A stretch of DNA of 64,000 nt, from positions 930,001 through 994,000 of the forward strand of contig OZ025786.1 in the NCBI GenBank assembly GCA_964019425.1, written 5' to 3'. This stretch comes from Flectonema sp. DT1601. Its lineage: Eukaryota. The notes below the pieces were generated by a model, which saw only the letters and a program-made list of their open reading frames with translations, was not told the origin of the DNA and searched no databases. Below, in pieces: positions 14,688 to 57,054 of the stretch; positions within the stretch are counted from its first letter, which is position 1, and every line of letters starts with the position of its first letter. The position numbers and the translations under genes were made by a program.

Positions 14688-14840
14688 ATTTTACTTTGTC
14701 TTAAAAAAAACATTCTGAAATAGAATAAACAAACTACAACATAAAAACAGATAAACAATAAATATGTTTCTATAACAAATACTTCAATCTATTCTACCAA
14801 AGTTCTAATAACAATTAATAAAGTACGACCACCCTGAAGG

Positions 14841-25108: not shown

Positions 25109-25593
25109 CATACTTGTGCAAAAAGCTAAAAGCTAAAGCTAAGCTTTTTGGAGCTAAAGCTAAGCTATCTAGCTTTTTTTAGCTTTTTTTTTGAAAAAAA
25201 TTTTTTTTTAAATTTTGGCATGTTTCTGTACTTTTTTGATATTTTTTTTGGTTTTGTGAGGAAAAAAAGTGTGGAAAAAAAAAAAAATCACCAATTATAA
25301 TATTTCCAGTATCCACCACTACAGGTTTTTGTGTGTTTTTTGGCTCATTTAAGCTGTTAAGTGACGTGATTTTTCGATATTTGCGCAACCTGGTATCTAC
25401 AAAGATAACATTTCATAATTCAACTATGTGTACTGTTGGGAGAGAAATATGTTTTTTTTTTTATATGACAGGCAAATTATTACTTATTACAATCAACACT
25501 GAGTATGATTTTTCGCTATACTTGCCTTAACACACATTTTCCCTACCTGGATTAAAAAAATGTCACTAAAAGGAGGAGATATCCATAAATTCA

Positions 25594-28394
25594 CTAAATA
25601 ATTATACCACAGAAGTAGTAAAATACAGGAAACAGGCGTTGTTTCCCCTTGCGTTTCAGCAGGAGATCTTCAAGTCTCACTGCCCGAACCCAGCAGTCGT
25701 ACACTGTGTTCCATCGGGTACTGCCTATGCATTTAAGTTGCAGAGGGCTTCCCTTTCGACCCTTCTGCACCTCAAGGAACAACTCCTTCCTTTTGGGGGT
25801 TGCCATCTCCTCTGTCAGATCCTTCACCTTATTGTATGCCGTTGAGAGGAGGGGGATACCATTGATGAGATCCTTCATTAACAGCTGCAATGAATGTGCT
25901 GCACATCTGATAGTGAGGAGCTTCTCCTTCCCTGCAGCCTGAAGCATCTGCTCTAGAGCATCTGCGTCAATGCCCTCTGGGTCTTCTTCTCCTGCACTTT
26001 CACAAGATGCTGCACTGTCATTGTCAGTGTCTTCTTCAAGACTCTCCATCTCTGTGATGGTTTATTAAATCTTAGTTTGTAAAATGTTGGGCAGCAGGTA
26101 ATGTTTGCTTTTTTAGATACATACTAACTGGAAGTGCTGCTTCCTTCAGGGCATTCTGCATGCTCTTTGCATTGTCAGCACAGAAGGCAAGTGGAACAAC
26201 ATTAGCTTCAAGTAGCTCAGTAGTGATGCTTCGAAGTACCTTCAAGGCATCTGCAGCAGAAAAGCTAGTAACTACTACACTTCTAAAAAACAGGGCCATA
26301 TGGCCATTGTGAATACTGAAGTTCAGCACTCGTCGCTTTCCAGGTAGTGTCGCCCCATCAAACATAATTGTAACATCATCGCCTTCAAACCGCTTAAGCA
26401 ACTTCTGACGGCAGGTATTCCCAAGCTTCTCAATGTGGGCAAGCAGACTCCTTCGCGTAACACCTGCAGGTGCAGACGTAATGCCAGTGAAAGTTGGATC
26501 TTCAACCACTTGCAGGGCTATCTTATTTTGGCAGAAGAACACAGCTATTTTGTCCATCATGCTCTGTTGGTGTGAGACATTGTACAAACACTTGATGTTT
26601 CTAAAGAAATTCAATGGTTTACATACCAAGTCTTTTAAAACACACAGATCAGTGGTGGAAGTGCCATGTGTTACCCCCAACTCCTTAGGCTTCCCGCTTC
26701 CTGGGAGGTTGTGATGACAACGCAAGTGTGCCCGCAGGTTACTTGTTCCAGCGTTTTTCTTCCCTGAGCCTCCATTCTTCATCCTAATCTCACCGCAAAT
26801 GTTGCACTTGCCCCTATCCCCATTATCAACAAACCAACCACCCTCACCAAAGAGTGGTCGGTCAGCCTGTGTTGTCCCAACCTCCAATCCCCCCTCCTTA
26901 GCTTCCTGTGGAATTGGCGCAGCTGGTATCTTGGGAAGTACTTCAGGCATGCTCTCCTTCGGCTTACTATCAAGGATATTGCGAATCCTCTCCTCCTTTG
27001 CATTCCACACCTCAGTTGCATCTCTGCACTTCTGTTCTGCATCATCTACCTCTGCTTTTAGTCGCTTCACTTCATTTTCCATCTCCCCATGTTCGGATTC
27101 AAGTAACCGCTTCTCGTTCTCAATCTCTAGAACCCTTGTTTCTAACTCTGTAACTTTCTCTGAGCTGCCTGTCTGCAACACATTTGCTAGAGTTGCGTGT
27201 GTAATTTGTGCTACCTGCAGTTGAATCCCTTCCGCTAGGGAAGAATGTTGTTTCTTTAGGGCACTGCACTCATCTTGCAAGCTAAGTAATTCCTTCTCAG
27301 CAGCAGTGTTTGACTCCTGCAGTTTCTGCGTTACTGCTTCATGCTCTTCCTGCAGCAGCAACTGCTCTTCATGCATTGCATCCTGGAATGCCTGGAACTC
27401 AGAGTCCCTGTAGCTTTGTTGGGCTACAAGATGGTGTTCTTGCAACTTTTCCACTGCAGTTATACCATCGTCAGTAGAAATGTTACTGAATGATGACTGC
27501 TCCTTTTGCCAGTTTCCAACTAAGTTTTCTACATCCCCACTACCTCTGGGCAGCAAGAAGGAAAGCAGTTTAGTACTTCTGGGTGTTTGGCATCACCCCC
27601 CATAGTGAGCAAGTACAACAGGTAGCATTGGTAGTCTGTTGATCCTGAGTGATCCCAGCTACAGTTTTGTTTTTCTTTCTTTTTTTTAGAAGAAGATCAG
27701 GACATCCAAGCACTGCTGGATAGTTGCTGAATGCAGGGCCTGCCTGTGGCATTATAATAACAGGCTAAGTCATTTGTAGTTCATAGTTTACCTTTGATTT
27801 TATAACTTCACACAGGGTACTATGAACGATGAGAGATCCAGTGGGATCACTCAGGGTCTAGTAGAGACCACCAATGTTGTGCGTTGATAGGCAAGGTGAC
27901 CAACCTTGACATTCTTTCTTTTCTCTCCTGTTGTGACAAACACAAAATACACACACAGCTTACAGCGTGTTCTTTGTGTATGTTTTCTTCAGGTGTGAGT
28001 AGTTTTTTTGTTCTTGCTCTTCAGGGAGGGCCTTAGCCAAAAGCTAACAGTCCAAATCTCACCTGGAAATTCAACTCAGTTTCTTAGCTGAGTGACTAAG
28101 ATGTCGAAAGTGAGAGAGATTCCCCCTGTACACTGTGACTGAATGATAGGGATTTGATGCCAAATCAGCATCAGAGGGTGGAAATCGAAGGATAGTGGCA
28201 GGATCTTGGCGATACATGATACCAACATGCCTGTTATCACCTGATCCTCGGGCTACTTGCACATAGCCTCTCCATTCCACTATCTTCTTCGCTGCCTCTT
28301 TCTTGAATCGCAGAACGATTCGATCATCGACTTGCAAGTCACATGCAAGTTGCTGCAGCTCAGCAGCCTCAAGTGGAGTTTCAAGAGCATTCAT
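25594..28394 (-). pseudogene. hAT transposase with N-terminal extension; introns 27546-28062 and 26052-26124; C-terminally truncated
   Basis: BED finger (CNIC...HLRCHH), FDGAT, ADNAKSM, RCAAHSLQL and TRWNT motifs. No catalytic Glu or dimerisation domain is seen. In-frame TGA at 28071-28073. Confidence 0.8.
27546..28062 (-). mobile_element. Introner-like mobile intron, copy 1 (517 nt)
   Basis: CCAG|GTGAG...TACTAAAC-polypyrimidine-CCCAG| with CCAG repeated at both ends. Near-identical to 55815-56331. Confidence 0.75.
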
Positions 28395-28986
28395 TGTAGG
28401 AGATGGATCTGAAAGGAGAAAAAAAACACATTGCAACAGGTTAAGTTACTGTAGTTTGACAGGGAACTTTGTAAGACATTTTTTAAGAACCTGGGGGGGG
28501 TAAATTAAGGAGGGGAAATTTGGATTTATGCAGTTTTGACACCTCTTACCTTATATCCTTGCTCTGTTCACAGATTTAGCTGCTAATATACCAAAAGACC
28601 CCAAAAAAACCCAAACAAGACTGGTTACTAGCTTTTTTAATTAAAAAAAATTTTTTTTACTCCCCTTCAAGTAATTTTTTTTTTTTTTTTTTACATTCTG
28701 AGAGAATAATTTTTTTTTCAAAAAATTCAAAAAAAATGCTTTCAGTGCCTACAGTGCCAGTTTCTCAATTTTCCACTGCTTTATTTTCAACAACTTTCCA
28801 TTTTTTTTCTAAAAAAATTCCAAAAAAATACCAAAAATGTCCAAAAATGAGGTATTTTTTGTTTGAAAATTTTTTTTCAAAAAAGCTAAAAAAAAGCTAA
28901 AAAAAGCTAAAAAAAGCTAAATAGCTTTAGCTTAGCTCTAAAAAGCTTAGCTTTAGCTTTAGCTTTTTGCACAAGTATGCTACTGG

Positions 28987-33578: not shown

Positions 33579-34095
33579 GTTTTTTTTTTTTTTTATAGCT
33601 TACTGCCAGTGCATTTCGGGGTCGCCCAAAGTCATGGGGATTTTTTTTTCTCCCAAAAAAAATTTTTTTTCCTACATAAGGCAAGGCCATCCGACGAGAT
33701 GAGTGAAATACACCGAACCTGTGTGACCTGGGCCTAGGACTGACTGCGCCCCTGGATCGGCATAGCTCGGTATGTGCAGGGCCAGGTATAGGGATGGACG
33801 AATTTCGGGTAGAGACACTTGTCCCGACTTGTCAGCTCATACAACCATGAGAATTCAGAGTGTATTAAAATACTAGAGGTGCATCACAAGCGTCAGATAG
33901 GAGACAAGAATTCGATAGAGTGGGAAGTAACGGACTGGGAGCTTTTGGCTCCTGCCCTATTCCCGATGTAAACTTTCTTTTTATTTTTTTTTTTTTAACA
34001 GGCCCAGAGGGCGACAATGACTGTTGCTGACCAAGGAATAATATTCAAATGAATTTTCGTTTCAAAGAAACGAACAGAATTAAGAGAGAGGCAGA

Positions 34096-34129
<34 letters not shown>

Positions 34130-34450
34130 AAAAAAAAAAAAATATGAAGAGGAAATAATCAAACATGAAAAAAATAAAAAAAAAAATAAAATATAAATAA
34201 AAAACGTTGTATGAAAAAGGAAAAAAAAGAAGAAAAAAAAAAAAGACCAGAAAAGGAAAGAGAAAATGAAAAGGTATAATATTATTGTGGGGATATGAGG
34301 ATAGCAGGGAGATGCTCTTTTTTTTTTTTTTTTTTTACTTATTATTTAAAAAAAAGGAAACAATCAGTTTAGCGTCTCGATCGGGACGGAAAATAGAAAT
34401 TAATCGACATAGTCGATCGATAGAAAAAAAAACAATGATAACATTGTTTA

Positions 34451-34485: not shown

Positions 34486-35160
34486 CTTTTAATTATTTTA
34501 AAGAAAAAACAATATTCTTTTTTATTAATTTTGAAAAAAAAAACAATCAGTTTAGCGTCTTGACCAGGACGGAAAATAGAAAGTGATCGACATAGTCGAT
34601 CGATAAAAAAACAATGATAACATTGTTTATTCTTTTTTTTTTTTTTTTAAATTCTTATTATTTATTTTTTAAACAAAAAAAAACGGAAAATAAAAATTAG
34701 TCGACAAAGTCGAACGATAAAAAAAAACAATGATAACATTGTTTATTCTTTTTTTTTTTGTTTTTTTTTTATATTCTTTTTTATTAATTTTGAAAAAAAA
34801 AACAATCAGTTTAGCGTCTTGACCAGGACGGAAAATAGAAAGTAATCGACATAGTCGATCGATAAAAAAACAATGATAACATTGTTTAATCTTTTTTTTT
34901 TTTTTTTAAATTCTTTTTATTTATTTTTGGGAAAACCTCTAATTCAACAAAAATAGTTTGCGAAATCGCCAACTCCCTACAAAAAAAAGTTATCCACCAG
35001 GACTCGAACTTGACCCGAAAAATTGACCATCGGCCGAAATATTAGGGAAAAAAGTTACCGCACCGGGACTCGAACTTGACAGATTTAAAAAAAAAAAAAA
35101 ATTCTTAATTTTTATTACAAAGTTTTTTTGTTGCAGCTTTCCACAAAAAAAAATTAAAAG

Positions 35161-35822
35161 ATGCCTGCTACTACTTATGCTGTTGGAGACTACTTCCGCA
35201 CACAGGAAGAACTGATCCAGACTGTGTTTCGGGTGAACACTGTGCTAGGACACAGCTGCAGGGTGCAGAGAAGGTGCCCCACGTACCTCACCCTCGCCTG
35301 TCCAAACGACGAATGCCAATGGACGGTGAAGGCAAAGGTGGTGGAGGGGGAGTGCCGCGTGACGAAGGTGGAGAGTCACACTTGCGCACCTGGGGAAGCG
35401 AGGCGGGGCTGCGATGGCACGTCGGACTGGATTTCCAGTATTTTGGAAGAGAAGGTAGCCAGTCAGTTTGACTACGGGCCGAAACAAGCGGCAATTGACT
35501 TAAAGTCATTCCGCGACGTTGCGGTCCCCAAAAAGACTGTGGAGAGGGGTCTGGAGAAGGCCAAGGAGAAGGTCCACGGGTTGATGGGCGAGCAGTACGG
35601 CCTGATAGCACCGTACCTCACCGACCTCCAACAGCGCAACAGCCAGATGTACTGGAACATCGAGAAGAGAGATGATGGTGCTTTTGAGAGGGTGTTTTGG
35701 TCTTTTGTGAGGCCAGAAACAGCTGAGCACCTGGCACCTGTCATCTGCAGCGATGCATGCAGTCTGACGGGTCCGTTTGGTGGGTGCTTGTTCATCACCG
35801 TGGGGATCGACGCCGAAAGGGT
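35161..35822 (+). pseudogene. MuDR transposase, 5' part
   Basis: Zn DNA-binding region (CPNDECQW...HTC) and the first catalytic Asp (CSDAC...GIDAE), cut by the insertion at 35823. Confidence 0.9.
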
Positions 35823-36280
35823 GAATTTCGAAAAGGTGGGAAGTAACGGACTGGGAGCTTTTGGCTCCTGCCCTATTCCCGATGTAAACTTTCTTTTTAT
35901 TTTTTTTTTTTTTTTTAACAGGCCCAAAGGGCGACAATGATGGTTGCTGACCAAGGAATAATATTCAAATGAATTTTCGTTTCAAAGAAACGAACAGAAT
36001 TAAGAGAGAGGTAGAGAAAAAAAAAAAAAAAAAAAAAAAAAAAAGAAAGAATAGAAAAAAAATATGAAGAGGAAATAATCAAACATGAAAAAAAAAAAAA
36101 AAAAATAAAATATAAATAAAAAACGTTGTATGAAAAAGGAAAAAAAGAAAAAAAAAAGACCAGAAAAGGAAAGAGAAAATGAAAAGGTATAATATTATTG
36201 TGGGGATATGAGGATAGCAGGGAGATGCTCTTTTTTTTTTTTTTTTTTTCTTTTTTTTTTTATTTATTATTTAAAAAAAG

Positions 36281-37088
36281 AAACAATCAGTTTAGCGTCT
36301 CGATCAGGACGGAAAATAGAAATTAATCGACATAGTCGATCGATAGAAAAAAAACAATGATAACATTGTTTATTCCTTTTTTTTTTTTTTTTTTTTTTAT
36401 TCTTTTTATTTATTTTTAAAGAAAAAACAATCAGTTTAGCGTCCTGACCAGGACGGAAAATTGAAAGTGATCGACATAGTCGATCGATAGAAAAAAAACA
36501 ATGATAACATTGTTTATTCCTTTTTTTTTTTTTTTTTTTTTTATTCTTTTTATTTATTTTTAAAGAAAAAACAATCAGTTTAGCGTCCTGACCAGGACGG
36601 AAAATTGAAAGTGATCGACATAGTCGATCGATAGAAAAAAAACAATGATAACATTGTTTATTCCTTTTTTTTTTTTTTTTTTTTTTATTCTTTTTATTTA
36701 TTTTTAAAGAAAAAACAATCAGTTTAGCGTCCTGACCAGGACGGAAAATTGAAAGTGATCGACATAGTCGATCGATAGAAAAAAAACAATGATAACATTG
36801 TTTATTCTTTTTTTTTTTTTTTTTTTTTTTAAATCCTTTTAATTATTTTAAAGAAAAACAATCAGTTTAGCGTCTTGACCAGGGCGGAAAATAGAAAGTA
36901 ATCGACATAGTCGATCGATAAAAAAAAAACAATGATAACATTGTTTATTCCTTTTTTTTTTTTTTTTTTTTTATTCTTTTTATTTATTTTTAAAGAAAAA
37001 ACAATCAGTTTAGCGTCCTGACCAGGACGGAAAATTGAAAGTGATCGACATAGTCGATCGATAAAAAAACAATGATAACATTGTTTAT

Positions 37089-37125
<37 letters not shown>

Positions 37126-37902
37126 CTTTTAATTATTTTTTAAAGAAAAAACAATCAGTTTAGCGTCTTGACCAGGACGGAAAATAGAAAGTGATCGACA
37201 TAGTCGATCGATAAAAAACAATGATAACATTGTTTATTCTTTTTTTTTTTTTTTTTTTTTTTTTTAATCCTTTTTATTATTTTAAAGAAAAAACAATCAG
37301 TTTAGCGTCTTGACCAGGACGGAAAATAGAAAGTGATCGACATAGTCGATCGATAAAAAAACAATGATAACATTGTTTATTCTTTTTTTTTTTTTTTTTT
37401 TAAATTCTTTTTATTTATTTTTAAAGAAAAAAAAACGGAAAATAAAAATTAGTCGACAAAGTCGAACGATAAAAAAAAAACAATGATAACATTGTTTATT
37501 CTTTTTTTTTTTGTTTTTTTTTATTCTTTTTTATTAATTTTGAAAAAAAAAACAATCAGTTTAGCGTCTTGACTAGGACGGAAAATAGAAAGTAATCGAC
37601 ATAGTCGATCGATAAAAAAAAACAATGATAACATTGTTTACTCTTTTTTTTTTTTTTTTTTTAAATTCTTTTTATTTTAAAAAGAAAAAAAACGGAAAAT
37701 AGAAATTAGTCGACAAAGTCGAACGATAAAAAAAAAACAATGATAACATTGTTTATTCTTTTTTTTTTATTTTTTTTTTTTATATTCTTTTTTATTAATT
37801 TTGAAAAAAAAACAATCAGTTTAGCGTCTTGACCAGGACGGAAAATAGAAAGTGATCGACATAGTCGATCGATAAAAAAAAACAATGATAACATTGTTTA
37901 TT

Positions 37903-37936
<34 letters not shown>

Positions 37937-38305
37937 CTTTTTTTTTTTTAAAGAAAAAACAATCAGTTTAGCGTCTTGACCAGGACGGAAAATAGAAAGT
38001 AATCGACATAGTCGATCGATAAAAAAAACAATGATAACATTGTTTATTCTTTTTTTTTTTTTTTAAATCTTTTTATTTATTTTTTAAAAAGAAAAAAAAA
38101 AAACGGAAACTAGAAATTAGTCAACAACGTCGAACGATAAAAAAAAACAATGATAACATTGTTTATTCTTTTTTTTTTATTTTTTTTTGTATTCTTTTTT
38201 ATTAATTTTGAAAAAAAACAATCAGTTTTGCGTCTTGACCAGGACGGAAAATAGAAAGTGATCGACATAGTCGATCGATAAAAAAACAATGATAACATTG
38301 TTTAT

Positions 38306-38343
<38 letters not shown>

Positions 38344-39047
38344 CTTTTTATTATTTTTAAAGAAAAAACAATCAGTTTAGCGTCTTGACCAGGACGAAAA
38401 ATAGAAAGTGATCGACATAGTCGATCGATAAAATAAAACAATGATAACATTGTTTATTCTTTTTTTTTTTTTTTTTTTTTTTTTAAATCCTTTTTATTAT
38501 TTTTAAAGAAAAAACAATCAGTTTAGCGTCTTGACCAGGACGAAAAATAGAAAGTGATCGACATAGTCGATCGATAAAAAAACAATGATAACATTGTTTA
38601 TTCTTTTTTTTTTTTTTTTTTATTTTAAATCCTTCTTTTTATTTTTTAAACCTTTTAATTATTTTTTAAAGAAAAAACAATCAGTTTAGCGTCTTGACCA
38701 GGACGGAAAATAGAAAGTAATCGACATAGTCGATCGATAAAATAAAAACAATGATAACATTGTTTATTCCTTTTTTTTTTTTTTTTATTCTTTTTATTTA
38801 TTTTTAAAGAAAAAACAATCAGTTTAGCGTCCTGACCAGGACGGGAAATAGAAAGTGATCGACATAGTCGATCGATAAAAAAACAATGATAACATTGTTT
38901 ATTCTTTTTTTTTTTTTTTTTTTTTTTTTTAATTCTTTTTATTTATTTTTTAAAGAAAAAACATCAGTTTAGCGTCTTGACCAGGACGGAAAATAGAAAT
39001 TAGTCGACAAAGTCGATCGATAACAAAACAATGATAACATTGTTTAT

Positions 39048-39078
<31 letters not shown>

Positions 39079-39860
39079 CTTTTTATTTATTTTTTAAAGA
39101 AAAAACAATCAGTTTAGCGTCCTGACCAGGACGGAAAATAGAAAGTAATCGACATAGTCGATCGATAAAAAAAACAATGATAACATTGTTTAATCTTTTT
39201 TTTCTTTTTTTTTTTTTTATTCTTTTTATTTATTTAGAAAAAACAATCAGTTTAGCGTCTTGACCAGGACGGAAAATAGAAATTAGTCGACAAAGTCGAT
39301 CGATAAAAAAACAATGATAACATTGTTTATTCTTTTTTTTTTTTTTTTTTTTTAAATTCTTTTTATTTATTTTTTAAGAAAAAAAAACGGAAAATAGAAA
39401 TTAGTCGACAAAGTCGAACGATAAAAAAACAATGATAACATTGTTTATTCTTTTTTTTATTTTTTTTTTTTATTCTTTTTTATTAATTTTGAAAAAAAAA
39501 AAAAACCAATCAGTTTAGCGTCTTGACCAGGACGGAAAATAGAAAGTAATCGACATAGTCGATCGATAAAAAAACAATGATAACATTGTTTATTCTTTTT
39601 TTTTTTTTTTTTTTAAATTCTTTTTATTTATTTTTTAAGAAGAAAAACGGAAAATAGAAATTAGTCGACAAAGTCGAACGATAAAAAAACAATGATAACA
39701 TTGTTTATTCTTTTTTTTATTTTTTTTTTTATATTCTTTTTTATTAATTTTGAAAAAAAAAAAAAAAACAATCAGTTTAGCGTCTTGACCAGGACGGAAA
39801 ATAGAAAGTAATCGACATAGTCGATCGATAAAAATACAATGATAACATTGTTTAATCTTT
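36281..39860 (+). repeat. Hairpin satellite A array (~90-130-bp units)
   Basis: Three conserved palindromes per unit, separated by variable T and A tracts. Confidence 0.95.
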
Positions 39861-40100
39861 TATAATTTTTTATTTTTTTTTTTGTTTTAAAAAAAAAAAA
39901 AAAAAACAAGCGGAATTGATCATAATGGGTGGTAGGGGTTGTTATAACTTCGTTTGAAAATTCTTCTTTTTTGATTTCTTTTTTTTTTTCTTTTTACAGG
40001 AGTTAAGATCACTTTCAGGAGACAACACATTAACAAGAGCAGCAAGCAGAGTTGACACTATCAATTCAAATTTGAAATACCGGGAATTAATTTACAAGGA

Positions 40101-40195
40101 GGTATCTCAAGTGACTTGGTATCTCTAGCGTGTCGGTATCTCTGGAGTGCTGGTATCTCGTATGTGCGTTGGTATCTCATGAGTGATGGTATCTC
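40101..40195 (-). repeat. Six GAGATACC motifs at 17-19-nt spacing (also 46457-46551, 61211-61305, 63412-63506)
   Basis: ggtatctc occurs six times with differing spacers. Confidence 0.9.
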
Positions 40196-40523
40196 TTGTG
40201 CATTAGAGAAACGAAAAAGAATGTCATGACCATGACGGAAGAATTGAGGAATTGAGTTAACATGTTCAATTTAACTTATTTAAACTTTTTTTTTTTTTTT
40301 TTAACAGACCGTAACTATTTGAAAATAAAATGTAGATGGGAAACAGTGAAAAGTAAAATGGATGATAAAATTAAATGAGAAATATGACATAACAGACCAG
40401 ATAGAGAGTATTAAAAGGAAATTGAAAAGGAAAAGAGAAACTAGGTTAACACTTATTTAAAATTAAGACCGGTTAGTCAGTTTAAGGTCTTGACTAGGAC
40501 CAACAAAAAAGAAAGAAAAAAAA

Positions 40524-41360
40524 ATTAACGATCAAGCTGAGCTGATCTTGTTTTTATTACAAATAGGGGAGCGGGAGGGATGGAAGGAATAGAGGAAAAA
40601 AAAAGAAAAGGTTGATCAATTGGATCTGATCGTCGAGAAGAAGAAATTATTTTAAAGGTTGATCGGTATAGCCGATCGTTGAGAAAAATAAACAGATATA
40701 AATACAATCAGTTTAAATTAAAAAAAGAAAAAAAGATTAACGATCAAGCTGAGCTGATCTTGTTTTTATTACAAATAGGGGAGCGGGAGGGATGGAAGGA
40801 ATAGAGGAAAAAAAAAGAAAAGGTTGATCAATTGGATCTGATCGTCGAGAAGAAGAAATTATTTTAAAGGTTGATCGGTATAGCCGATCGTTGAGAAAAA
40901 TAAACAGATATAAATACAATCAGTTTAAATTAAAAAAAGAAAAAAAGATTAACGATCAAGCTGAGCTGATCTTGTTTTTATTACAAATAGGGGAGCGGGA
41001 GGGATGGAAGGAATAGAGGAAAAAAAAAAGAAAAGGTTGATCAATTGGATCTGATCGTCGAGAAGAAGAAATTATTTTAAAGGTTGATCGGTATAGCCGA
41101 TCGTCGAGAAAAATAAACAGATATAAATACAATCAGTTTAAATTAAAAAAAGAAAAAAAGATTAACGATCAAGCTGAGCTGATCTTGTTTTTATTTAAAA
41201 TTAGGGGAGCGGGAGGGATGGAAGGAATAAAGGAAAAAAAAAAAAAAAAAAAGGTCGATCAATTGGATCTGATCGTCGAGAAGAAGAAAACAATTATTTA
41301 TAAAAAAAAATGGTCGGTATAGCCGATCGTTGAGAAAAGAACAGATATAAATACAATCGG
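40524..41360 (+). repeat. 212-bp repeat B, four copies (three at ~46880-47505, two at ~60470-60885, two at ~62700-63120)
   Basis: Identical 60-aa ORFs 212 nt apart. Each unit has GATC-closed hairpins. Confidence 0.92.
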
Positions 41361-41855
41361 TTTTGGTGATCGACGAGTGGAGCGATCACTTGACAAGAAG
41401 GAAAAAGAAAGGACCGATTAATTGGGGCTTTGATTGTATTCCCAAGGCATGTTTTTTTTTTTTTTTTTTTATTATTCATTTACATTATTATTTTTTTTTT
41501 TTTTTTTAAATTAATAATCACATTTTGTTCAAAAATATTTCATATTAGAGTAAAAGAAAAAGAAAAAAAGAAATAAGAGAAAAAAAAAAAAAAAAAAAAA
41601 CCATTGCTGGCCCCCTCACCACTCATAGAGGATGAGGAGGCCAGTAAGGCGTCACTCAAATCTATGCCAAGCCTTGGGAACTTGGATTAGGGTTTAGACC
41701 ATTTATAATTAACAATTAACAATTAACCTGATTAACGTTATGATCTGACGGACATAAACATATCGATAAAATAATACAAACAAAAACGAACAATAAATAA
41801 TAAATAAGCTAAAAAACTAAATAAACAAAGTGATGTGAAAGTAAGGAAAAGAGAA

Positions 41856-43154
41856 TTACAAGGGGGTGGAGTCACCGTGAACGTCATCAGCAGAACATCT
41901 CCTTCGATTGTAACGATATCTTGATGGAGGGGTTCGTTTTTTCAGAGTTGAACGCTCAGACTTTCTCGGCGGAGTTTCATTTTCCTCATGTTCTTCTGTG
42001 TCTGGCGGACTCAAACCTTCTGCCCATGAAGCTAATTGGAACTTCAGGGCCGCAATTTGAGACCGTGCCAAGGCGAGTTGAGCATTTAAATCGCTCGCCA
42101 GTCCCGTTAACATCATGGATTGCTCAAGCTGCTCTGCGTGAGTTGTACACCGTTGGTGATTCAGCTCCGAGAGGCGAAGTTGGGCATCCAGAAGTTGTTC
42201 TGAGAGCTCTGCCGCTTTCTCGTTTGTTTCGAGAGAGTCATCTACTGCTCGACAGTAATTCTCGAGTAAGTCAATCCTACCCTCGGACCATTGTCTCGCA
42301 ATAGGTGTATTCTCTTTAACGGAGATAACGTGACTCTCTTGTCGTAAAATCTTGGTCGGCGTGCGGTCGAGAGCTTCACTCTGCGGCATTGTCGGAGGAA
42401 TTGAGGCTAGAGGACAAAGAGGGGTGATATAATTAAGGGTAGGGATAAGGGGTTTAATAAGAGGAGTAAAAAGACTACTCGTAGTTGTAAAGAGCGAGAG
42501 GTAGTTCTTTGCTATCTTCATCATAGCAACAGATTCATATAGAACGGGGGTTCGGGGGGAAACTTGTTGACTAAAGTGGGTCATACGGGGACGCGCGGCA
42601 CGCAAACTCTCGACCTCCTGTTGAGTATAGAAAAGTCTTATTTTACTTTCTCTTTCCTCATTACATTTGGTCTCCAATTCGTTCGACAGAAGAACAAACC
42701 TTTGATGGTAATTAAAGAGCGCCATTTCCGATAGGTCTGCTCTCTGAGTCAGATTTGCGAGCTCACGTTTCCTGTAATCTTCCACTAAGTCATATTGTCG
42801 AACTAGTGCAGAAAGAGAAGTCTTCGATTCATCGCGTTCTGCTGTTAACCGTTGAATTACTCCTTCCAGAAGTTCATATTCTTTTCTATCTTTTTCAATA
42901 ATTAAAACAGGGGGCGCAGGAGGAAGTGAGGATGGATCCTGGTTGGTAGCTTTGATCTCAACAGGTAATCCATTTAGTAACTGCTTGTCTTTCTCGAGGG
43001 AGGCTGACATCGCATTAAAGTAAAATAAAAATAGAACATAAAAAATTCGTTCTTTCATTTGCTCTAATTCGTTTTCTAAAATCTGGCATTTCAAGGAAAG
43101 TTTCAGCCTTAATTTTCCTTCTTTTTTTTTGTACAAGGGGGTTTGAGAACCCAT
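41856..43154 (-). CDS. Element-encoded coiled-coil protein of unknown function, copy 1
   Basis: The 432 aa from MGSQ are identical in three copies despite DNA differences. The ORF-track extension to 43331 crosses the unit junction. Confidence 0.75.
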   Translation of the reverse strand: MGSQTPLYKKKEGKLRLKLSLKCQILENELEQMKERIFYVLFLFYFNAMSASLEKDKQLLNGLPVEIKATNQDPSSLPPAPPVLIIEKDRKEYELLEGVIQRLTAERDESKTSLSALVRQYDLVEDYRKRELANLTQRADLSEMALFNYHQRFVLLSNELETKCNEERESKIRLFYTQQEVESLRAARPRMTHFSQQVSPRTPVLYESVAMMKIAKNYLSLFTTTSSLFTPLIKPLIPTLNYITPLCPLASIPPTMPQSEALDRTPTKILRQESHVISVKENTPIARQWSEGRIDLLENYCRAVDDSLETNEKAAELSEQLLDAQLRLSELNHQRCTTHAEQLEQSMMLTGLASDLNAQLALARSQIAALKFQLASWAEGLSPPDTEEHEENETPPRKSERSTLKKRTPPSRYRYNRRRCSADDVHGDSTPL

Positions 43155-43614
43155 GTCAGATTGAGTTCTTATCACTATAGCGAAATCAGCAGGAAGTGTT
43201 TGCGATCCCGTTGAGGCTGAATTTCGATAAGTGGGAAGTAACGGACTGGGAGCTTTTGGCTCCTGCCCTATTCCCGACGTAAACTTTCTTTTTATTTTTT
43301 TTTTTTTTTTAACAGGCCCAAAGGGCGACAATGATGGTTGCTGACCAAGGAATAATATTCAAATGAATTTTCGTTTCAAAGAAACGAACAGAATTAAGAG
43401 AGAGGTAGAGAAAAAAAAAAAAAAAAAAAAAAAGAAAGAATAGAAAAAAAATATGAAGAGGAAATAATCAAACATGAAAAAAAAAAAAAAAAATAAAATA
43501 TAAATAAAAAACGTTGTATGAAAAAGGAAAAAAAGAAAAAAAAAAGACCAGAAAAGGAAAGAGAAAATGAAAAGGTATAATATTATTGTGGGGATATGAG
43601 GATAGCAGGGAGAT

Positions 43615-43652
<38 letters not shown>

Positions 43653-43670
43653 TTATTATTTAAAAAAAGG

Positions 43671-43905
43671 AAACAATCAGTTTAGCGTCTCGATCAGGAC
43701 GGAAAATAGAAATTAATCGACATAGTCGATCGATAGAAAAAAAACAATGATAACATTGTTTATTCCTTTTTTTTTTTTTTTTTTTTATTCTTTTTATTTA
43801 TTTTTAAAGAAAAAACAATCAGTTTAGCGTCCTGACCAGGACGGAAAATTGAAAGTGATCCACATAGTCGATCGATAGAAAAAAGACAATGATAACATTG
43901 TTTAT

Positions 43906-43938
<33 letters not shown>

Positions 43939-44330
43939 CTTTTAATTATTTTAAAGAAAAAACAATCAGTTTAGCGTCTTGACCAGGACGGAAAATAGAA
44001 AGTGATCGACATAGTCGATCGATAAAAAACAATGATAACATTGTTTATTCCTTTTTTTTTTCTTTTTTTTTTATTCTTTTTATTTATTTTTAAAGAAAAA
44101 ACAATCAGTTTAGCGTCCTGACCAGGACGGAAAATAGAAAGTAATCGACATAGTCGATCGATAAAAAAAAAACAATGATAACATTGTTTATTCCTTTTTT
44201 TTTTCTTTTTTTTTATTCTTTTTATTTATTTTTAAAGAAAAAACAATCAGTTTAGCGTCCTGACCAGGACGGAAAATTGAAAGTGATCGACATAGTCGAT
44301 CGATAAAAAAACAATGATAACATTGTTTAT

Positions 44331-44361
<31 letters not shown>

Positions 44362-45135
44362 CCTTTTAATTATTTTTTAAAGAAAAAACAATCAGTTTAG
44401 CGTCTTGACCAGGACGGAAAATAGAAAGTGATCGACATAGTCGATCGATAAAAAACAATGATAACATTGTTTATTCTTTTTTTTTTTTTTTTTTTTTTTT
44501 AATCCTTTTTATTATTTTAAAGAAAAAACAATCAGTTTAGCGTCTTGACCAGGACGGAAAATAGAAAGTGATCGACATAGTCGATCGATAAAAAAACAAT
44601 GATAACATTGTTTATTCTTTTTTTTTTTTTTTTTTTAAATTCTTTTTATTTATTTTTAAAGAAAAAAAACGGAAAATAAAAATTAGTCGACAAAGTCGAA
44701 CGATAAAAAAAAACAATGATAACATTGTTTATTCTTTTTTTTTTTGTTTTTTTTTATATTCTTTTTTATTAATTTTGAAAAAAAAACAATCAGTTTAGCG
44801 TCTTGACCAGGACGGAAAATAGAAAGTAATCGACATAGTCGATCGATAAAAAAAACAATGATAACATTGTTTACTCTTTTTTTTTTTTTTTTTTAAATTC
44901 TTTTTATTTTAAAAAGAAAAAAAACGGAAAATAGAAATTAGTCAACAAAGTCGAACGATAAAAAAAAAAACAATGATAACATTGTTTATTCTTTTTTTTT
45001 TATTTTTTTTTTTATATTCTTTTTTATTAATTTTGAAAAAAAAAACAATCAGTTTAGCGTCTTGACCAGGACGGAAAATAGAAAGTGATCGACATAGTCG
45101 ATCGATAAAAAAAAAACAATGATAACATTGTTTAT

Positions 45136-45172
<37 letters not shown>

Positions 45173-46215
45173 CTTTTTTTTTTTTTAAAGAAAAAACAAT
45201 CAGTTTAGCGTCTTGACCAGGACGGAAAATAGAAAGTAATCGACATAGTCGATCGATAAAAAAAACAATGATAACATTGTTTATTCTTTTTTTTTTTTTT
45301 TTTAAATCTTTTTATTTATTTTTTAAAAAGAAAAAAAAAAACGGAAAATAGAAATTAGTCAACAACGTCGAACGATAAAAAAAAAAACAATGATAACATT
45401 GTTTATTCTTTTTTTTTTTATTTTTTTTTGTATTCTTTTTTATTAATTTTGAAAAAAAAACAATCAGTTTTGCGTCTTGACCAGGACGGAAAATAGAAAG
45501 TGATCGACATAGTCGATCGATAAAAAAACAATGATAACATTGTTTATTCTTTTTTTTTTTTTTTTTTTTTTTAAATCCTTTTTATTATTTTTAAAGAAAA
45601 AACAATCAGTTTAGCGTCTTGACCAGGACGAAAAATAGAAAGTGATCGACATAGTCGATCGATAAAAAAACAATGATAACATTGTTTATTCTTTTTTTTT
45701 TTTTTCTTCTTTTTTTTAAATCCTTCTTTTTATTTTTTAAAGAAAAAACAATCAGTTTAGCGTCTTGACCAGGACGGAAAATAGAAAGTAATCGACATAG
45801 TCGATCGATAAAATAAAAACAATGATAACATTGTTTATTCCTTTTTTTTTTTTTTTTATTCTTTTTATTTATTTTTAAAGAAAAAAACGGAAAATAGAAA
45901 GTAATCGACATAGTCGATCGATAAAAAAACAATGATAACATTGTTTATTCCTTTTTTTTTTTTTTTTTTTTTAAATTCTTTTTATTTATTTTTTAAGAAA
46001 AAAACGGAGAATAGAAATTAGTCGACAAAGTCGAACGATAAAAAAACAATGATAACATTGTTTATTCTTTTTTTTATTTTTTTTTTTATATTCTTTTTTA
46101 TTAATTTTGAAAAAAAAAAAAAAACAATCAGTTTAGCGTCTTGACCAGGACGGAAAATAGAAAGTAATCGACATAGTCGATCGATAAAAATACAATGATA
46201 ACATTGTTTAATCTT
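43671..46215 (+). repeat. Hairpin satellite A array
   Basis: Same variant order as in unit 1, with fewer units. Confidence 0.95.
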
Positions 46216-47999
46216 TTATAATTTTTTATTTTTTTTTTTGTTTTAAAAAAAAAAAAAAAAAACAAGCGGAATTGATCATAATGGGTGGTAGGGGTTGTTA
46301 TAACTTCGTTTGAAAATTCTTCTTTTTTGATTTCTTTTTTTTTTTCTTTTTACAGGAGTTAAGATCACTTTCAGGAGACAACACATTAACAAGAGCAGCA
46401 AGCAGAGTTGACACTATCAATTCAAATTTGAAATACCGGGAATTAATTTACAAGGAGGTATCTCAAGTGACTTGGTATCTCTAGCGTGTCGGTATCTCTG
46501 GAGTGCTGGTATCTCGTATGTGCGTTGGTATCTCATGAGTGATGGTATCTCTTGTGCATTAGAGAAACGAAAAAGAATGTCATGACCATGACGGAAGAAT
46601 TGAGGAATTGAGTTAACATGTTCAATTTAACTTATTTAAACTTTTTTTTTTTTTTTAACAGACCGTAACTATTTGAAAATAAAATGTAGATGGGAAACAG
46701 TGAAAAGTAAAATGGATGATAAAATTAAATGAGAAATATGACATAACAGACCAGATAGAGAGTATTAAAAGGAAATTGAAAAGGAAAAGAGAAACTAGGT
46801 TAACACTTATTTAAAATTAAGACCGGTTAGTCAGTTTAAGGTCTTGACTAGGACCAACAAAAAAGAAAGAAAAAAAAATTTAACGATCAAGCTGAGCTGA
46901 TCTTGTTTTTATTACAAATAGGGGAGCGGGAGGGATGGAAGGAATAGAGGAAAAAAAAAAGAAAAGGTTGATCAATTGGATCTGATCGTCGAGAAGAGGA
47001 AATTTTTTTAAAGGTTGATCGGTATAGCCGATCGTTGAGAAAAATAAACAGATATAAATACAATCAGTTTAAATTAAAAAAAGAAAAAAAGATTAACGAT
47101 CAAGCTGAGCTGATCTTGTTTTTATTACAAATAGGGGAGCGGGAGGGATGGAAGGAATAGAGGAAAAAAAAAGAAAAGGTTGATCAATTGGATCTGATCG
47201 TCGAGAAGAAGAAATTATTTTAAAGGTTGATCGGTATAGCCGATCGTCGAGAAAAATAAACAGATATAAATACAATCAGTTTAAATTAAAAAAAGAAAAA
47301 AAGATTAACGATCAAGCTGAGCTGATCTTGTTTTTATTTAAAATTAGGGGAGCGGGAGGGATGGAAGGAATAAAGGAAAAAAAAAAAAAAAAAAGGTCGA
47401 TCAATTGGATCTGATCGTCGAGAAGAAGAAAACAATTATTTATAAAAAAAAATGGTCGGTATAGCCGATCGTTGAGAAAAGAACAGATATAAATACAATC
47501 GGTTTTGGTGATCGACGAGTGGAGCGATCACTTGACAAGAAGGAAAAAGAAAGGACCGATTAATTGGGGCTTTGATTGTATTCCCAAGGCATGTTTTTTT
47601 TTTTTTTTTTTTTATTATTCATTTACATTATTATTTTTTTTTTTTTTTTTTAAATTAATAATCACATTTTGTTCAAAAATATTTCATATTAGAGTAAAAG
47701 AAAAAGAAAAAAAGAAATAAGAGAAAAAAAAAAAAAAAAAAAACCATTGCTGGCCCCCTCACCACTCATAGAGGATGAGGAGGCCAGTAAGGCGTCACTC
47801 AAATCTATGCCAAGCCTTGGGAACTTGGATTGGGGTTTAGACCATTTATAATTAACAATTAACAATTAACCTGATTAACGTTATGATCTGACGGACATAA
47901 ACATATCGATAAAATAATACAAACAAAAACGAACAATAAATAATAAATAAGCTAAAAAACTAACTAAACAAAGTGATGTGAAAGTAAGGAAAAAGAGAA

Positions 48000-50240
48000 T
48001 TACAAGGGGGTGGAGTCACCGTGAACGTCATCAGCAGAACATCTCCTTCGATTGTAACGATATCTTGATGGAGGGGTTCGTTTTTTCAGAGTTGAACGCT
48101 CAGACTTTCTCGGCGGAGTTTCATTTTCCTCATGTTCTTCTGTGTCTGGCGGACTCAAACCTTCTGCCCATGAAGCTAATTGGAACTTCAGGGCCGCAAT
48201 TTGAGACCGTGCCAAGGCGAGTTGAGCATTTAAATCGCTCGCCAGTCCCGTTAACATCATGGATTGCTCAAGCTGCTCTGCGTGAGTTGTACACCGTTGG
48301 TGATTCAGCTCCGAGAGGCGAAGTTGGGCATCCAGAAGTTGTTCTGAGAGCTCTGCCGCTTTCTCGTTTGTTTCGAGAGAGTCATCTACTGCTCGACAGT
48401 AGTTCTCGAGTAAGTCAATCCTACCCTCGGACCATTGTCTCGCAATAGGTGTATTCTCTTTAACGGAGATAACGTGACTCTCTTGTCGTAAAATCTTGGT
48501 CGGCGTGCGGTCGAGAGCTTCACTCTGCGGCATTGTCGGAGGAATTGAGGCTAGAGGACAAAGAGGGGTGATATAATTAAGGGTAGGGATAAGGGGTTTA
48601 ATAAGAGGAGTAAAAAGACTACTCGTAGTTGTAAAGAGCGAGAGGTAGTTCTTTGCTATCTTCATCATAGCAACAGATTCATACAGAACGGGGGTTCGGG
48701 GGGAAACTTGTTGACTAAAGTGGGTCATACGGGGACGCGCGGCACGCAAACTCTCGACCTCCTGTTGAGTATAGAAAAGTCTTATTTTACTTTCTCTTTC
48801 CTCATTACATTTGGTCTCCAATTCGTTCGACAGAAGAACAAACCTTTGATGGTAATTAAAGAGCGCCATTTCCGATAGGTCTGCTCTCTGAGTCAGATTT
48901 GCGAGCTCACGTTTCCTGTAATCTTCCACTAAGTCATATTGTCGAACTAGTGCAGAAAGAGAAGTCTTCGATTCATCGCGTTCTGCTGTTAACCGTTGAA
49001 TTACTCCTTCCAGAAGTTCATATTCTTTTCTATCTTTTTCAATAATTAAAACAGGGGGCGCAGGAGGAAGTGAGGATGGATCCTGGTTGGTAGCTTTGAT
49101 CTCAACAGGTAATCCATTTAGTAACTGCTTGTCTTTCTCGAGGGAGGCTGACATCGCATTAAAGTAAAATAAAAATAGAACATAAAAAATTCGTTCTTTC
49201 ATTTGCTCTAATTCGTTTTCTAAAATCTGGCATTTCAAGGAAAGTTTCAGCCTTAATTTTCCTTCTTTTTTTTTGTACAAGGGGGTTTGAGAACCCATGT
49301 CAGATTGAGTTCTTATCACTATAGCGAAATCAGCAGGAAGTGTTTGCGATCCCGTTGACATGAGTTCAGGTGGGGGAGTCTGGAAAGAGATGGAAGAAAT
49401 AGAAGAGAATGACAAGGAGAGTCCAGTGAGCTCATCCTCATCTAACAAAACAGAAGGGGCCGGGGAGGAAGAACCATTGGCAATAAGTAGAATAGAAAGA
49501 GCCGATGCGTAACAAGTTTGCCAGATAAAACATTTCTCAAGCCACGATCTTTCAATGGTGAGCTTTTCGATCGTTTTCAGTTTTGTTACTTTGTGGATTT
49601 TGACTTCTTCCACAGGGAAGATTTCTTTACCATCTTTTATAAAACTTGCAGTGGCAGGTTCTTCTTTAATGCTGCGCATTAGTGGTCTTGAATGCCACGT
49701 GGGGAGGTTCCTCGTCTGGAACAGAACATATGAGCACTGTCTGGCGATTCTGGTGCATTCACAAAATAAAGCTTTTGTTGGTGCTAAAGGTGAACCGATG
49801 TGACGTGTCCAGATGTTCAGCTGGTCCATGCAGATGTTTCCTCGTACGCCAACTTCAATAGTAAAAATGTTACAGTCGAAGCCATTAGCGATGATCGAGT
49901 CTCTTAGCTTTAGGTATTTCTTTTCCTTTAAGACATGAGAGGTTTCGAAACGATCTTCATTTGGACACGTCAGCTCCAGAATCAGTGCTCTTTTCGCAAA
50001 AAAAGAATAAATAAAAATGTCTGGTCTTAGAGAGGACGAGACATGGCACACTTCAAGAGGAACAATTAGGCGGTTATCACCGACATCGTCGAGGATGACC
50101 CAATCATTCGCTAGTGAAAGTTCGCCTGTCTCTTTAGAAATTCTTTCTAGGGGTTTATTTTCCCCTGTTTTTAAAAAAGTTTGAGAGGGAGGCGGGAGGT
50201 TTTCTTTTCTTTTGTTGGCTTTTATTATCAACTCTTCCAA
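48000..50240 (-). CDS. 5'-truncated ORF: HERO-like restriction-like endonuclease domain in frame with the coiled-coil protein
   Basis: LANDWVILDD...LRPDIFI...ILELTCPNE...KEKKY..L...IEVGVRG...SYVLFQTR..W matches the RLE of non-LTR retrotransposons. No stop occurs before the coiled-coil region. Confidence 0.8.
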   Translation of the reverse strand: MEELIIKANKRKENLPPPSQTFLKTGENKPLERISKETGELSLANDWVILDDVGDNRLIVPLEVCHVSSSLRPDIFIYSFFAKRALILELTCPNEDRFETSHVLKEKKYLKLRDSIIANGFDCNIFTIEVGVRGNICMDQLNIWTRHIGSPLAPTKALFCECTRIARQCSYVLFQTRNLPTWHSRPLMRSIKEEPATASFIKDGKEIFPVEEVKIHKVTKLKTIEKLTIERSWLEKCFIWQTCYASALSILLIANGSSSPAPSVLLDEDELTGLSLSFSSISSISFQTPPPELMSTGSQTLPADFAIVIRTQSDMGSQTPLYKKKEGKLRLKLSLKCQILENELEQMKERIFYVLFLFYFNAMSASLEKDKQLLNGLPVEIKATNQDPSSLPPAPPVLIIEKDRKEYELLEGVIQRLTAERDESKTSLSALVRQYDLVEDYRKRELANLTQRADLSEMALFNYHQRFVLLSNELETKCNEERESKIRLFYTQQEVESLRAARPRMTHFSQQVSPRTPVLYESVAMMKIAKNYLSLFTTTSSLFTPLIKPLIPTLNYITPLCPLASIPPTMPQSEALDRTPTKILRQESHVISVKENTPIARQWSEGRIDLLENYCRAVDDSLETNEKAAELSEQLLDAQLRLSELNHQRCTTHAEQLEQSMMLTGLASDLNAQLALARSQIAALKFQLASWAEGLSPPDTEEHEENETPPRKSERSTLKKRTPPSRYRYNRRRCSADDVHGDSTPL

Positions 50241-50335
50241 GAAGATAACAATGCGTTTTAGAGTTCAATGAGTTCAGGTGGGGGAGTCTGGAAAGAGATG
50301 GAAGAAATAGAAGAGAATGACAAGGAGAGTCCAGT

Positions 50336-55202: not shown

Positions 55203-55234
<32 letters not shown>

Positions 55235-55814
55235 CTCTGCCTCTCTCTTAATTCTGTTCGTTTCTTTGAAACGAAAATTCATTTGAATATTATTCCTTGG
55301 TCAGCAACAGTCATTGTCGCCCTCTGGGCCTGTTAAAAAAAAAAAAATTAAAAAGAAAGTTTACATCGGGAATAGGGCAGGAGCCAAAAGCTCCCAGTCC
55401 GTTACTTCCCACTCTATCGAATTCAGCCTTTTTATTTATTTTTTAACAGGAGTTAAGATCACTTACATGAGTTAACACAACACAGATACGAGAGTCGCAA
55501 ACTGAGAAATCCAACATCATGAATCTTTAGAAGAGTGATACAGCTCGGTATGTGTGCAGGGCCGGGTCACCTACGCAGAGACAAGTCTCCGCTACACGTC
55601 GTACCAACCAAGATGAGGTATGAGAGCGCAAAAACCAAGTATACATGATCAGCGGCCTAGGGCTTGACATGAATAGCTGTGGAGTGGCGAAACCATTTAG
55701 TGTTCTCAAGTCTGAGATCACCTCACTGAGCCACACAGTACACAGTTATATTCATTTTACTTTTTATTATTTCCCATCTACTTTTTATTTTCTATTAGTT
55801 CTGGTCAGAAACTC

Positions 55815-56331
55815 CTGGGCAGCAAGAAGGAAAGCAGTTTAGTACTTCTGGGTGTTTGGCATCACCCCCCATAGTGAGCAAGTACAACAGGTAGCATTGG
55901 TAGTCTGTTGATCCTGAGTGATCCCAGCTACAGTTTTGTTTTTCTTTCTTTTTTTTAGAAGAAGATCAGGACATCCAAGCACTGCTGGATAGTTGCTGAA
56001 TGCAGGGCCTGCCTGTGGCATTATAATAACAGGCTAAGTCATTTGTAGTTCATAGTTTACCTTTGATTTTATAACTTCACACAGGGTACTATGAACGATG
56101 AGAGATCCAGTGGGATCACTCAGGGTCTAGTAGAGACCACCAATGTTGTGCGTTGATAGGCAAGGTGACCAACCTTGACATTCTTTCTTTTCTCTCCTGT
56201 TGTGACAAACACAAAATACACACACAGCTTACAGTGTGTTCTTTGTGTATGTTTTCTTCAGGTGTGAGTAGTTTTTTTGTTCTTGCTCTTCAGGGAGGGC
56301 CTTAGCCAAAAGCTAACAGTCCAAATCTCAC
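55815..56331 (-). mobile_element. Introner-like mobile intron, copy 2 (517 nt)
   Basis: Same ends and length as copy 1, with one substitution noticed. CTGG at 55815-55818 and 56332-56335. Confidence 0.75.
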
Positions 56332-57023
56332 CTGGTAAACTCAACTCGGAGTTTCTGTGAAAGTAGCCCACGGAACACTTTTCTAAAGATTCAATCAGCC
56401 GAACTACTCCGCTACTGAGCTACTAGTATATATTATTATGTCACCTGTTGAAGGAGTACTAAGAGGTTGATTCAGGCCCTGCACGTATTAGTTGTAATTA
56501 CAGCACTTGCTTTACCTTAAATTACTCCTTCCCTCATTGAGAACCAACCCATCTCGGCCATCCCGGTGTATTTGGGAACGAAGAAAAACCTTGTTTTCTT
56601 ACCGAACAGCGAAAAATCCGAATATCACTTTCAGTGAATAGCGAAAGAAAAACTTTTCCGTTTACTGAACAGCGAAAATGAAATTACCTACCATAGCATT
56701 TTATACAGGAAAAAAAAAGTTGTTCACTAGCGAAAAGTTTTTTTGGGTGCAGGCAACGGAGAAAAAAAAAAAAAAAATTCATTTTGCCAACAAAAAAAAA
56801 AAATTTTTTTTTTGCTGTCCATTTCGGAAACTTTCGTGTGTGGAGCTGTCCATTTCGGAAACTATTTTGTGTGGAGCTGTCCATTTCGGAAACTATTTTG
56901 TGTGGAGCTGTCCGTTTCGGAAACTTTCATGTTGAGATCGGACATTTCAGTAACATTTACGTGGAATTAGAGGTTTTCCCTTTTTATTTTTTTCATGTTT
57001 GATTATTTCCTCTTCATATTTTT

Positions 57024-57054
<31 letters not shown>

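Follow-up and report, generated by a model that had tools for sequence, protein, structure and literature searches.

Stringent pairs of short and long interspersed nuclear elements (SINEs and LINEs) are recognised by a 3' tail common to both partners, in which a stem-loop is preserved through compensatory changes, as set out in the portions of the literature on which we draw (PMC3747384, PMC4176376). In the eel UnaSINE1/UnaL2, tobacco TS/RTE and zebrafish ZfL2 systems, a short non-coding element has its 3' tail and stem-loop in common with a LINE (PMC3747384, PMC4176376). The present study concerns a 532/533-nt repeat found in two copies in a 64,000-nt stretch of Flectonema sp. DT1601 DNA (contig OZ025786.1, positions 930,001 to 994,000; the whole stretch is referred to as the window). 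The repeat resembles these short elements but differs from the stringent pairs in having an R2-like partner, of the restriction-like endonuclease type, in that no small-RNA head was found in it, and in that splice signals span nearly the whole of its antisense strand. We consider it probable that the repeat is a SINE-like non-autonomous retroposon copied by the reverse transcriptase of the R2-like LINE, with an antisense GT-AG intron that is predicted to be spliced.

The R2 SIDEs of Drosophila are likewise non-autonomous and use a 3' end recognised by an R2-type protein; in the part of PMC3414825 that describes them, they consist of a 5' ribozyme and this 3' end and reside in 28S ribosomal DNA, whereas the targets of the present repeat are varied and no ribozyme was found in it. 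Short retroposons (260-1030 bp) moved by a long partner are also known from the trypanosomatids, the sister lineage, as the RIME/ingi, NARTc/L1Tc and SIDER systems. These elements are, however, truncated members of the ingi clade, according to excerpts of PMC3820030, whereas our repeat shares only about 55 nt, at ~72% identity, with the R2-like LINE.

A further point of comparison is provided by introners, repeated elements with splice signals near both ends. Excerpts of PMC12130899 leave about 72% of introner families without an assignable mechanism and class some introners as non-LTR (non-long-terminal-repeat; 14 rows in one supplementary table); for Diplonema papillatum they list no introner families. 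The pipeline described there discards families whose similarity reaches into exons, and would therefore miss the element studied here, which differs from those introners in its exon overlap of 15-16 nt, in that its splicing is predicted and in that no host-gene insertions were seen. Fungal introner-like elements resemble it in being longer than ordinary introns, in having a stable predicted structure and in having no terminal inverted repeats (TIRs); as portrayed in part of PMC3609843 they are spliceosomal introns present in hundreds of copies, whereas our element leaves a footprint and has a LINE tail. No account of this element, or of a diplonemid SINE or introner, was met with in the literature searched, supplements 13 and 14 of PMC12130899 and the repeat supplement of PMC10161547 not being covered.

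The repeat extends beyond the intron-like stretch

A sequence-only reading of the window had reported two near-identical stretches of 517 nt, at 27546-28062 and 55815-56331, both reading CCAG/GTGAG...TACTAAAC-pyrimidines-CCCAG on the minus strand. Both points proved right, the two stretches differing at a single position (C at 27966, T at 56235). Self-alignment revealed, however, that the similarity of the copies extends 15-16 nt past the GT; the repeat is thus longer than 517 nt, and the CCAG ahead of the GT, which had been taken for the target site, is element sequence. The 3' end of the plus strand is fixed at 28077/56347 in four contexts: the hAT transposon that received copy 1, the surroundings of copy 2, a LINE open reading frame (ORF) and a MuDR ORF. 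The LINE context comes from contigs of X1, a sequencing run (see below). One of these spans 27546-28077 with one difference and begins exactly at 28077; a second, of depth 2, joins base 28077 to the LINE ORF, its flank corresponding to 58767-58796. The MuDR context is provided by protein P0165, which starts within the element, reads a 16-nt piece of the copy-2 type and continues directly into the MuDR transposase. Two tail types exist, of 15 and 16 nt. That four different flanks meet the element at one base indicates a unit longer than the 517-nt intron.

At the 5' end, the flanks of copies 1 and 2 diverge within one base of 27546. Protein P0146 comes from a further hAT copy in which the flank of copy 2 passes into hAT only 2-3 nt from this position and the element is absent; the finding of this flank without the element favours a real 5' end. 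The sequence preceding copy 2 (55432-55814) could be a repeat in its own right, or it could belong to the 5' portion of a longer version of the element (see Discussion).

When base 55815 is counted with the flank, the sequences bordering copy 2 (55806-55815 and 56348-56357) make up a perfect 20-bp palindrome with the insertion at its centre; the target may have been a hairpin, or insertion may have produced an inverted duplication. The same 5-7 nt are found on the plus strand within a few bases after each copy (28080-28086 and 56350-56356), five of them being hAT target in copy 1; such a repeat would fit priming on microhomology between read-through donor RNA and the target. The copy-2 hairpin was considered as a rolling-circle origin, an idea dropped because copy 1 is without that hairpin. 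Also abandoned were a mitochondrial insert, against which the fixed termini and the LINE tail would argue, and a 4-bp CCAG target duplication.

The 3' tail matches the terminus of an R2-like LINE

The last ~55 nt of the element's plus strand align with the LINE terminus, with ~72% identity over 53 nt. Local alignment of the last 60 nt with four LINE ends gave scores of 54-58, against means of 28-29 for shuffled sequences; in every one of the four tests, not one shuffle out of 3000 attained the observed score, nor did any of 2494 control windows from gene regions. The best-scoring windows within the element were the terminal plus-strand ones. The tails of element and LINE fold into the same hairpin, in which nine of nine pairs are kept, seven identically and two through double changes. 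When the window was scanned with the 26-nt hairpin pattern, eight occurrences were found (zero expected), six at LINE ends and two in the copies of the element, with none elsewhere even when 3 mismatches were allowed. The hairpin had already been noted as a ttagc/gctaa stem in the sequence-only reading. Possession of the same hairpin tail at the 3' end makes it likely that the element's RNA is copied by the R2-like LINE.

The LINE ORF, repeated in the window, belongs to a protein cluster of 235 members, 15 of them listed. Six long members were scanned: all six carry zf-RVT and four carry RVT_1. R2 proteins are the best solved relatives of these long members, and the stretch following the reverse transcriptase contains what we take, by eye, to be a restriction-like endonuclease motif. 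Two LINE units stand in tandem, each proceeding from ORF through repeat arrays to a terminus of ~290 nt; no LINE copy in the window has kept its 5' end. The terminus is constant: six different junction proteins meet it within the same few bases. It is 5'-truncated to ~40 nt in P0137 and P0145, and at a different point in P0148. A constant 3' terminus combined with varied 5' truncation is as expected from target-primed reverse transcription. Copy 2 is thus surrounded not by Mutator TIRs, for which its ~290-nt repeats had been considered, but by 3' ends of a non-LTR retrotransposon, and its placement in the interior of a Mutator element is not supported. Two LINE insertions, in MuDR and in hAT (P0137, at the protein level only), show no clear duplication and in this look like the one resolved junction of the element.

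Other features of the LINE were recorded. Its ORF (41859-43214, 48003-50264, 58669-59976 and 61386-62051) includes ~500 residues beyond the endonuclease region that look coiled-coil-like and have no Pfam match, and its 3' untranslated region (~4.8 kb) is made up of 212-bp, 36-bp and ~140-bp tandem arrays, a layout unusual for such elements. A second LINE family is 49% identical. Nested LINE copies totalling ~14.5 kb split a MuDR transposase gene (35158-35820 and ~50336-51620), the join of which is seen in intact relatives (P0164, 632 aa, MULE and SWIM). A DIRS/VIPER/TATE-like fragment with reverse transcriptase and RNase H (RVT_1) occupies 57249-58381, between two outward-facing LINE 3' ends.

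Empty and filled sites in hAT

The hAT-like transposon that received copy 1 encodes a protein with a DUF659 match under the Pfam cut-off and a weak zf-BED match. Its protein cluster has 34 members, 15 of them listed; with six further hAT-derived proteins, 21 were examined. The insertion site is empty in 11, filled in two (P0124 on four contigs, P0126 on two) and not covered in the remaining eight. The empty site reads KK-E-GSG, its codons being fixed by a frameshifted cluster member. Among fillings of 0-4 bases, a single solution fits both frames: 534 nt were added and 2 target nt lost, with no duplication. Splicing is predicted to give KK-LS*-IS-R-GSG (the asterisk denotes a stop) and not the empty KK-E-GSG.

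These data bear on the earlier proposal that splicing restores the target exactly and that removal of the intron leaves the hAT in frame apart from one TGA. The remnant of 15 nt (tail type 1) is in frame, but the TGA sits in this piece of the element's own sequence, which refutes exact restoration. Intron-less hAT copies, suggested as a check, do exist; all 11 are without the CCAG-containing 15-mer. Searching with the piece of hAT upstream of the insertion brought up no longer protein, an uninformative negative as the cluster does contain such proteins. The empty alleles, together with the extra 15-16 nt in four contexts, refute a spliceosomal intron that inserts at CCAG and restores its target exactly. 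To judge from their near-identity, the hAT protein records in ENA probably stem from the same assembly. Since several contigs carry the filled hAT, the element may in addition be spreading as a passenger of this transposon.

Independent insertions in P0137, P0145 and P0146 are spaced no more than ~10 nt apart in the ORF of hAT, near window position 28220, and two in the MuDR ORF lie within ~15 nt; these are possible insertion hot spots. The hAT is itself inserted in another reverse-transcriptase ORF (24420-25108 and 28980-30078), the frame of which continues across it; this ORF appears Penelope-like by eye and has no Pfam match.

Splice signals on the antisense strand

Of 40,000 shuffled strands, 2 had a donor in the first 30 nt together with an acceptor exactly at the other end; among 126,932 real windows the number was 7, counting the element itself, by donor and acceptor criteria chosen after the element was seen; with the acceptor criterion alone the count is 172 of 126,932 window positions. 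It seems unlikely, on these counts, that splice signals would stand at both ends by chance. The donor lies within the antisense of the LINE-derived tail; at the corresponding place in the LINE, the context of the GT is poorer. The acceptor is formed by the complement of the bases with which the element begins. The presumed branch site does not conform to the YTRAY motif used for diplonemids, from which it is one base off. In the sections of PMC12621601 that deal with splicing, Diplonemidae are described as having a U2 spliceosome and introns that are mostly canonical GT-AG, GTATG is the commonest donor in three diplonemid species, and the YTRAY motif is present in only 2-16% of diplonemid introns. 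Cis-splicing would leave a remnant of 15-17 nt, which in tail type 1 is in frame and free of stops in two of the three phases. In two of the three coding contexts, hAT and the X1 LINE, the element lies in the intron sense; in the third, MuDR (P0165), it is antisense.

Internal structure and distribution of the repeat

On both strands the 517-nt stretch has a lower fold energy than every one of 100 shuffles (z -5.45 for the minus strand, z -4.61 for the plus strand), most of the signal being supplied by a central rod (z -5.5). Five stems named previously all exist, four of them perfect and one with a mismatch. Equally confirmed was the statement that the repeat has neither TIRs nor a credible ORF: no TIRs were found at the ends of either copy, there is no target duplication at the hAT site, and the longest ORF from a start codon encodes 60 aa. 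This small ORF was called on at least five contigs besides that of the window, which sets a lower bound to the copy number. Rfam, which covers group I and group II self-splicing introns and known ribozymes, gave matches at chance level only with both copies. ARAGORN predicted no tRNA gene in the element, although a very diverged small-RNA head would escape it, and a simple descriptor for ribozymes like that of hepatitis delta virus, lacking validation on a positive control, gave no match. No poly(A) or clear simple-repeat tail is present, and no head resembling tRNA, 5S or 7SL RNA was found.

Neither a 20-nt intron-end pattern nor the tail-hairpin pattern had any match in metagenome contigs or in viral contigs. 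Fifteen sequencing runs (11 studies, 11 organism codes) share 0.20-0.51 of the sequence words of window positions 27300-28300, which is about the element's share. In the three of these that were examined, the element was found in X1 and X10 and not seen in X3, about 40% of which was read. Four runs from the same samples contain none of these words, and contig depths in the runs that hold the element are 2-10; both facts point to trace carry-over of the repeat and not to horizontal transfer, making carry-over the likely source of the element in the 15 runs. Contigs 3-5 of X10 carry a slightly different version of the element and loop onto themselves, with 705 and 588 unseen letters; the loops, of ~1139 and ~865 nt, could stem from copies arrayed in tandem, from circular molecules or from composite copies merged into one consensus.

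Table 1. Positions of the repeat, its parts and the transposons around it, in window coordinates
Feature	Position	Strand	Remarks
Element copy 1	27546..28077	+	532 nt, tail type 1; read in the presumed retroposon sense
Element copy 2	55815..56347	+	533 nt, tail type 2
Putative GT-AG intron	27546..28062	-	predicted; donor 28062, branch-like site ~25 nt before AG, acceptor 27546
Central rod	27610..27895		putative structure; arms 27641-27657/27842-27858 and 27779-27787/27819-27827; z -5.5 alone
3' tail homologous to R2-like LINE terminus	28024..28077	+
Tail hairpin, copy 1	28028..28053	+	outer stem 4 bp, inner stem 5 bp, loop 5 nt; two U-A pairs are G-C in the LINE
Tail hairpin, copy 2	56297..56322	+
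15-nt remnant left after predicted splicing	28063..28077	-	TGA 28071-28073 stops the hAT frame
Non-target bases at 3' junction of copy 1	28078..28079	+	two target bases lost, no duplication; empty allele from two reading frames
hAT-like DNA transposon, target of copy 1	25109..28979	-	17-18-bp TIRs, 7-8-bp duplication; ORF 28394 to 26072 if uninterrupted
Sequence 5' of copy 2	55432..55814		also precedes the element in X1; its end is element-free in P0146
5'-truncated R2-like LINE, likely partner family	43217..50335	-	ORF end, 212-bp and 36-bp repeats, ~140-bp array, ~290-nt 3' terminus
Second, shorter LINE copy	35822..43213	-
LINE-type 3' terminus with hairpin	33908..34194	-
Further LINE-type 3' termini	55142-55431, 56981-57248, 58382-58583	+, +, -

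Setting of the window

The best named relatives of a kinase encoded in the window bear diplonemid labels, one record being from D. papillatum; the protein-name prefixes Sspe and Hpha presumably stand for Sulcionema and Hemistasia. The host, a marine protist, is likely to be a diplonemid. Transposons nested together fill the right half of the window. The repeats of D. papillatum are described in broad terms in the part of PMC10161547 devoted to them. An intron-less ORF of 1864 codons (9096-14690), with repeated segments that look beta-rich, has no Pfam match.

Discussion

The element and the LINE have tail and hairpin in common, the 3' boundary is fixed, two nucleotides were lost at the hAT site without duplication, and several copies exist, in both orientations. 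Under the reading that we favour, a plus-strand RNA would be transcribed from the element, the LINE protein would bind it at the tail hairpin, and it would be inserted at a nick by target-primed reverse transcription. The copied RNA would remain uncut because the splice signals are on the opposite strand. From transcripts of a gene in which a copy stands in antisense, cis-splicing would take out 517 nt, with ~15-17 nt left behind. Maize Ds and dSpm, which are DNA transposons, are spliced out with a footprint. Alternatively, the AG might serve as a spliced-leader acceptor. The SIRE repeat of Trypanosoma cruzi, tied to VIPER, supplies a trans-splice acceptor. The earlier suggestion that the repeat moves through RNA and is no miniature inverted-repeat transposable element (MITE) is supported as regards mobility and the use of RNA; the route would be another one, through the strand opposite to the intron, which carries a LINE-type 3' tail. 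The element is not a SINE in the strict sense, no head derived from a small RNA having been found, nor is it a precise introner, since similarity runs 15-16 nt into the exon and a stop remains in the hAT frame; it may be an imperfect one. TIRs and target duplication being absent, it is not a MITE or other TIR-bearing DNA transposon either.

Several observations weigh against this reading. The fixed 5' end is accounted for by no promoter, tRNA head, Rfam match or ribozyme. In two of the three contexts that show the 5' side (copy 2 and run X1) the same flank continues, and the continuation in X1 makes a longer form possible, although the X1 contig (depth 6) may be a mosaic. Protein P0143 departs from the element ~8 nt before the AG, reading through the branch-site stop, and P0152 may depart ~65 nt before the AG, to judge from a weak, 6-residue match; both could be later insertions or truncated copies. 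As for the tail, the two double changes were matched by 114 of 500 shuffles, and the compensatory pairs count as one event since only two sequence types are compared; by itself, moreover, the element's tail folds no better than shuffles (z -0.8, -0.6). Identity of ~72% over 53 nt implies that the true partner may be a sister LINE family. Finally, the insertions seen are all in other transposons and none in a host gene; hAT, LINE and MuDR being transposon genes, selection is weak there.

The most serious competitor, though an unlikely one, is a longer LINE-driven element that includes 55432-55814 or more. Copy 1 would then be 5'-truncated, stopping by chance at the acceptor base, and the intron would be an internal antisense feature or a coincidence. 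Such an element would account for the flank that copy 2 has in common with X1, identical at all 30 bases shown and 95 letters long in the contig, 5' truncation is common in this LINE, and parts of the copy-2 flank resemble the LINE 3' untranslated region (93% over 75 nt). Against it stand the meeting of that flank with hAT in P0146, within 2-3 nt of the same point and with no element, the closure of the copy-2 flanks into a palindrome, and the rarity of positions at which truncation would coincide with an acceptor-like end (the 172 counted above). Copying of the intron-sense RNA appears improbable. Here, spliced-leader trans-splicing at the AG would free an outron ending at the AG, its 5' part lying beyond the GT, to be reverse-transcribed into breaks. 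Trans-splicing is established in euglenozoans, and this would explain both the exact AG end of copy 1 and the additional bases that precede the GT. On the GT side, however, the element's end is not ragged, falling at one base in four contexts, and it matches the LINE 3' terminus in the opposite sense.

A DNA-level element, either MITE-like or a Crypton or other tyrosine-recombinase element with a short core, that gained its LINE end by chance seems more improbable still. The long internal inverted repeats, the DIRS-like fragment 900 nt from copy 2 and a short direct repeat around copy 2 would suit it, but there are no TIRs, the hAT site shows neither duplication nor a shared core, and the LINE-like part is exactly terminal, with its hairpin kept by double changes. 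We give least credence of all to a spliceosomal intron of exactly 517 nt, re-inserting at CCAG through reverse splicing or as a circular intron and restoring its target. CCAG does occur before the GT and at the intron end in both copies, and intron circles made by the spliceosome exist in yeast and human cells, as documented in part of PMC10996645. Yet the 11 proteins that cross the empty hAT site have no CCAG-containing 15-mer, the 15/16-mer moves with the element into MuDR and LINE targets, and the MuDR copy is antisense as an intron. Intron-less products of copy 2 were found in neither of two protein look-ups, a weak argument as filled forms are likewise absent.

Returning to the LINE-copied retroposon, we find real use of the antisense splice signals conceivable, with the balance tilting somewhat against it. 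A more tentative idea, and a rather doubtful one, is that of an RNA-mobilised introner: the sense RNA would be copied by the R2-like LINE through the shared hairpin, while the antisense strand would form a complete splice cassette, spliced from polycistronic transcripts with an in-frame 15-nt scar, giving rise to new spliceosomal introns in a diplonemid. Whichever applies, repeated GT-AG segments need to be checked against empty sites before they are labelled introners. If the signals are unused, the element would be of an ordinary kind, though undescribed: a SINE-like companion of an R2-like LINE, from a lineage that has received little study. If true, the placement of splice signals on the opposite strand would explain how an element moved through RNA can be almost wholly intron. 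For the spread of introns that have neither TIRs nor duplications, a specific enzyme, RNA recognition signal and strand can be put forward here, which makes RNA-based intron gain testable.

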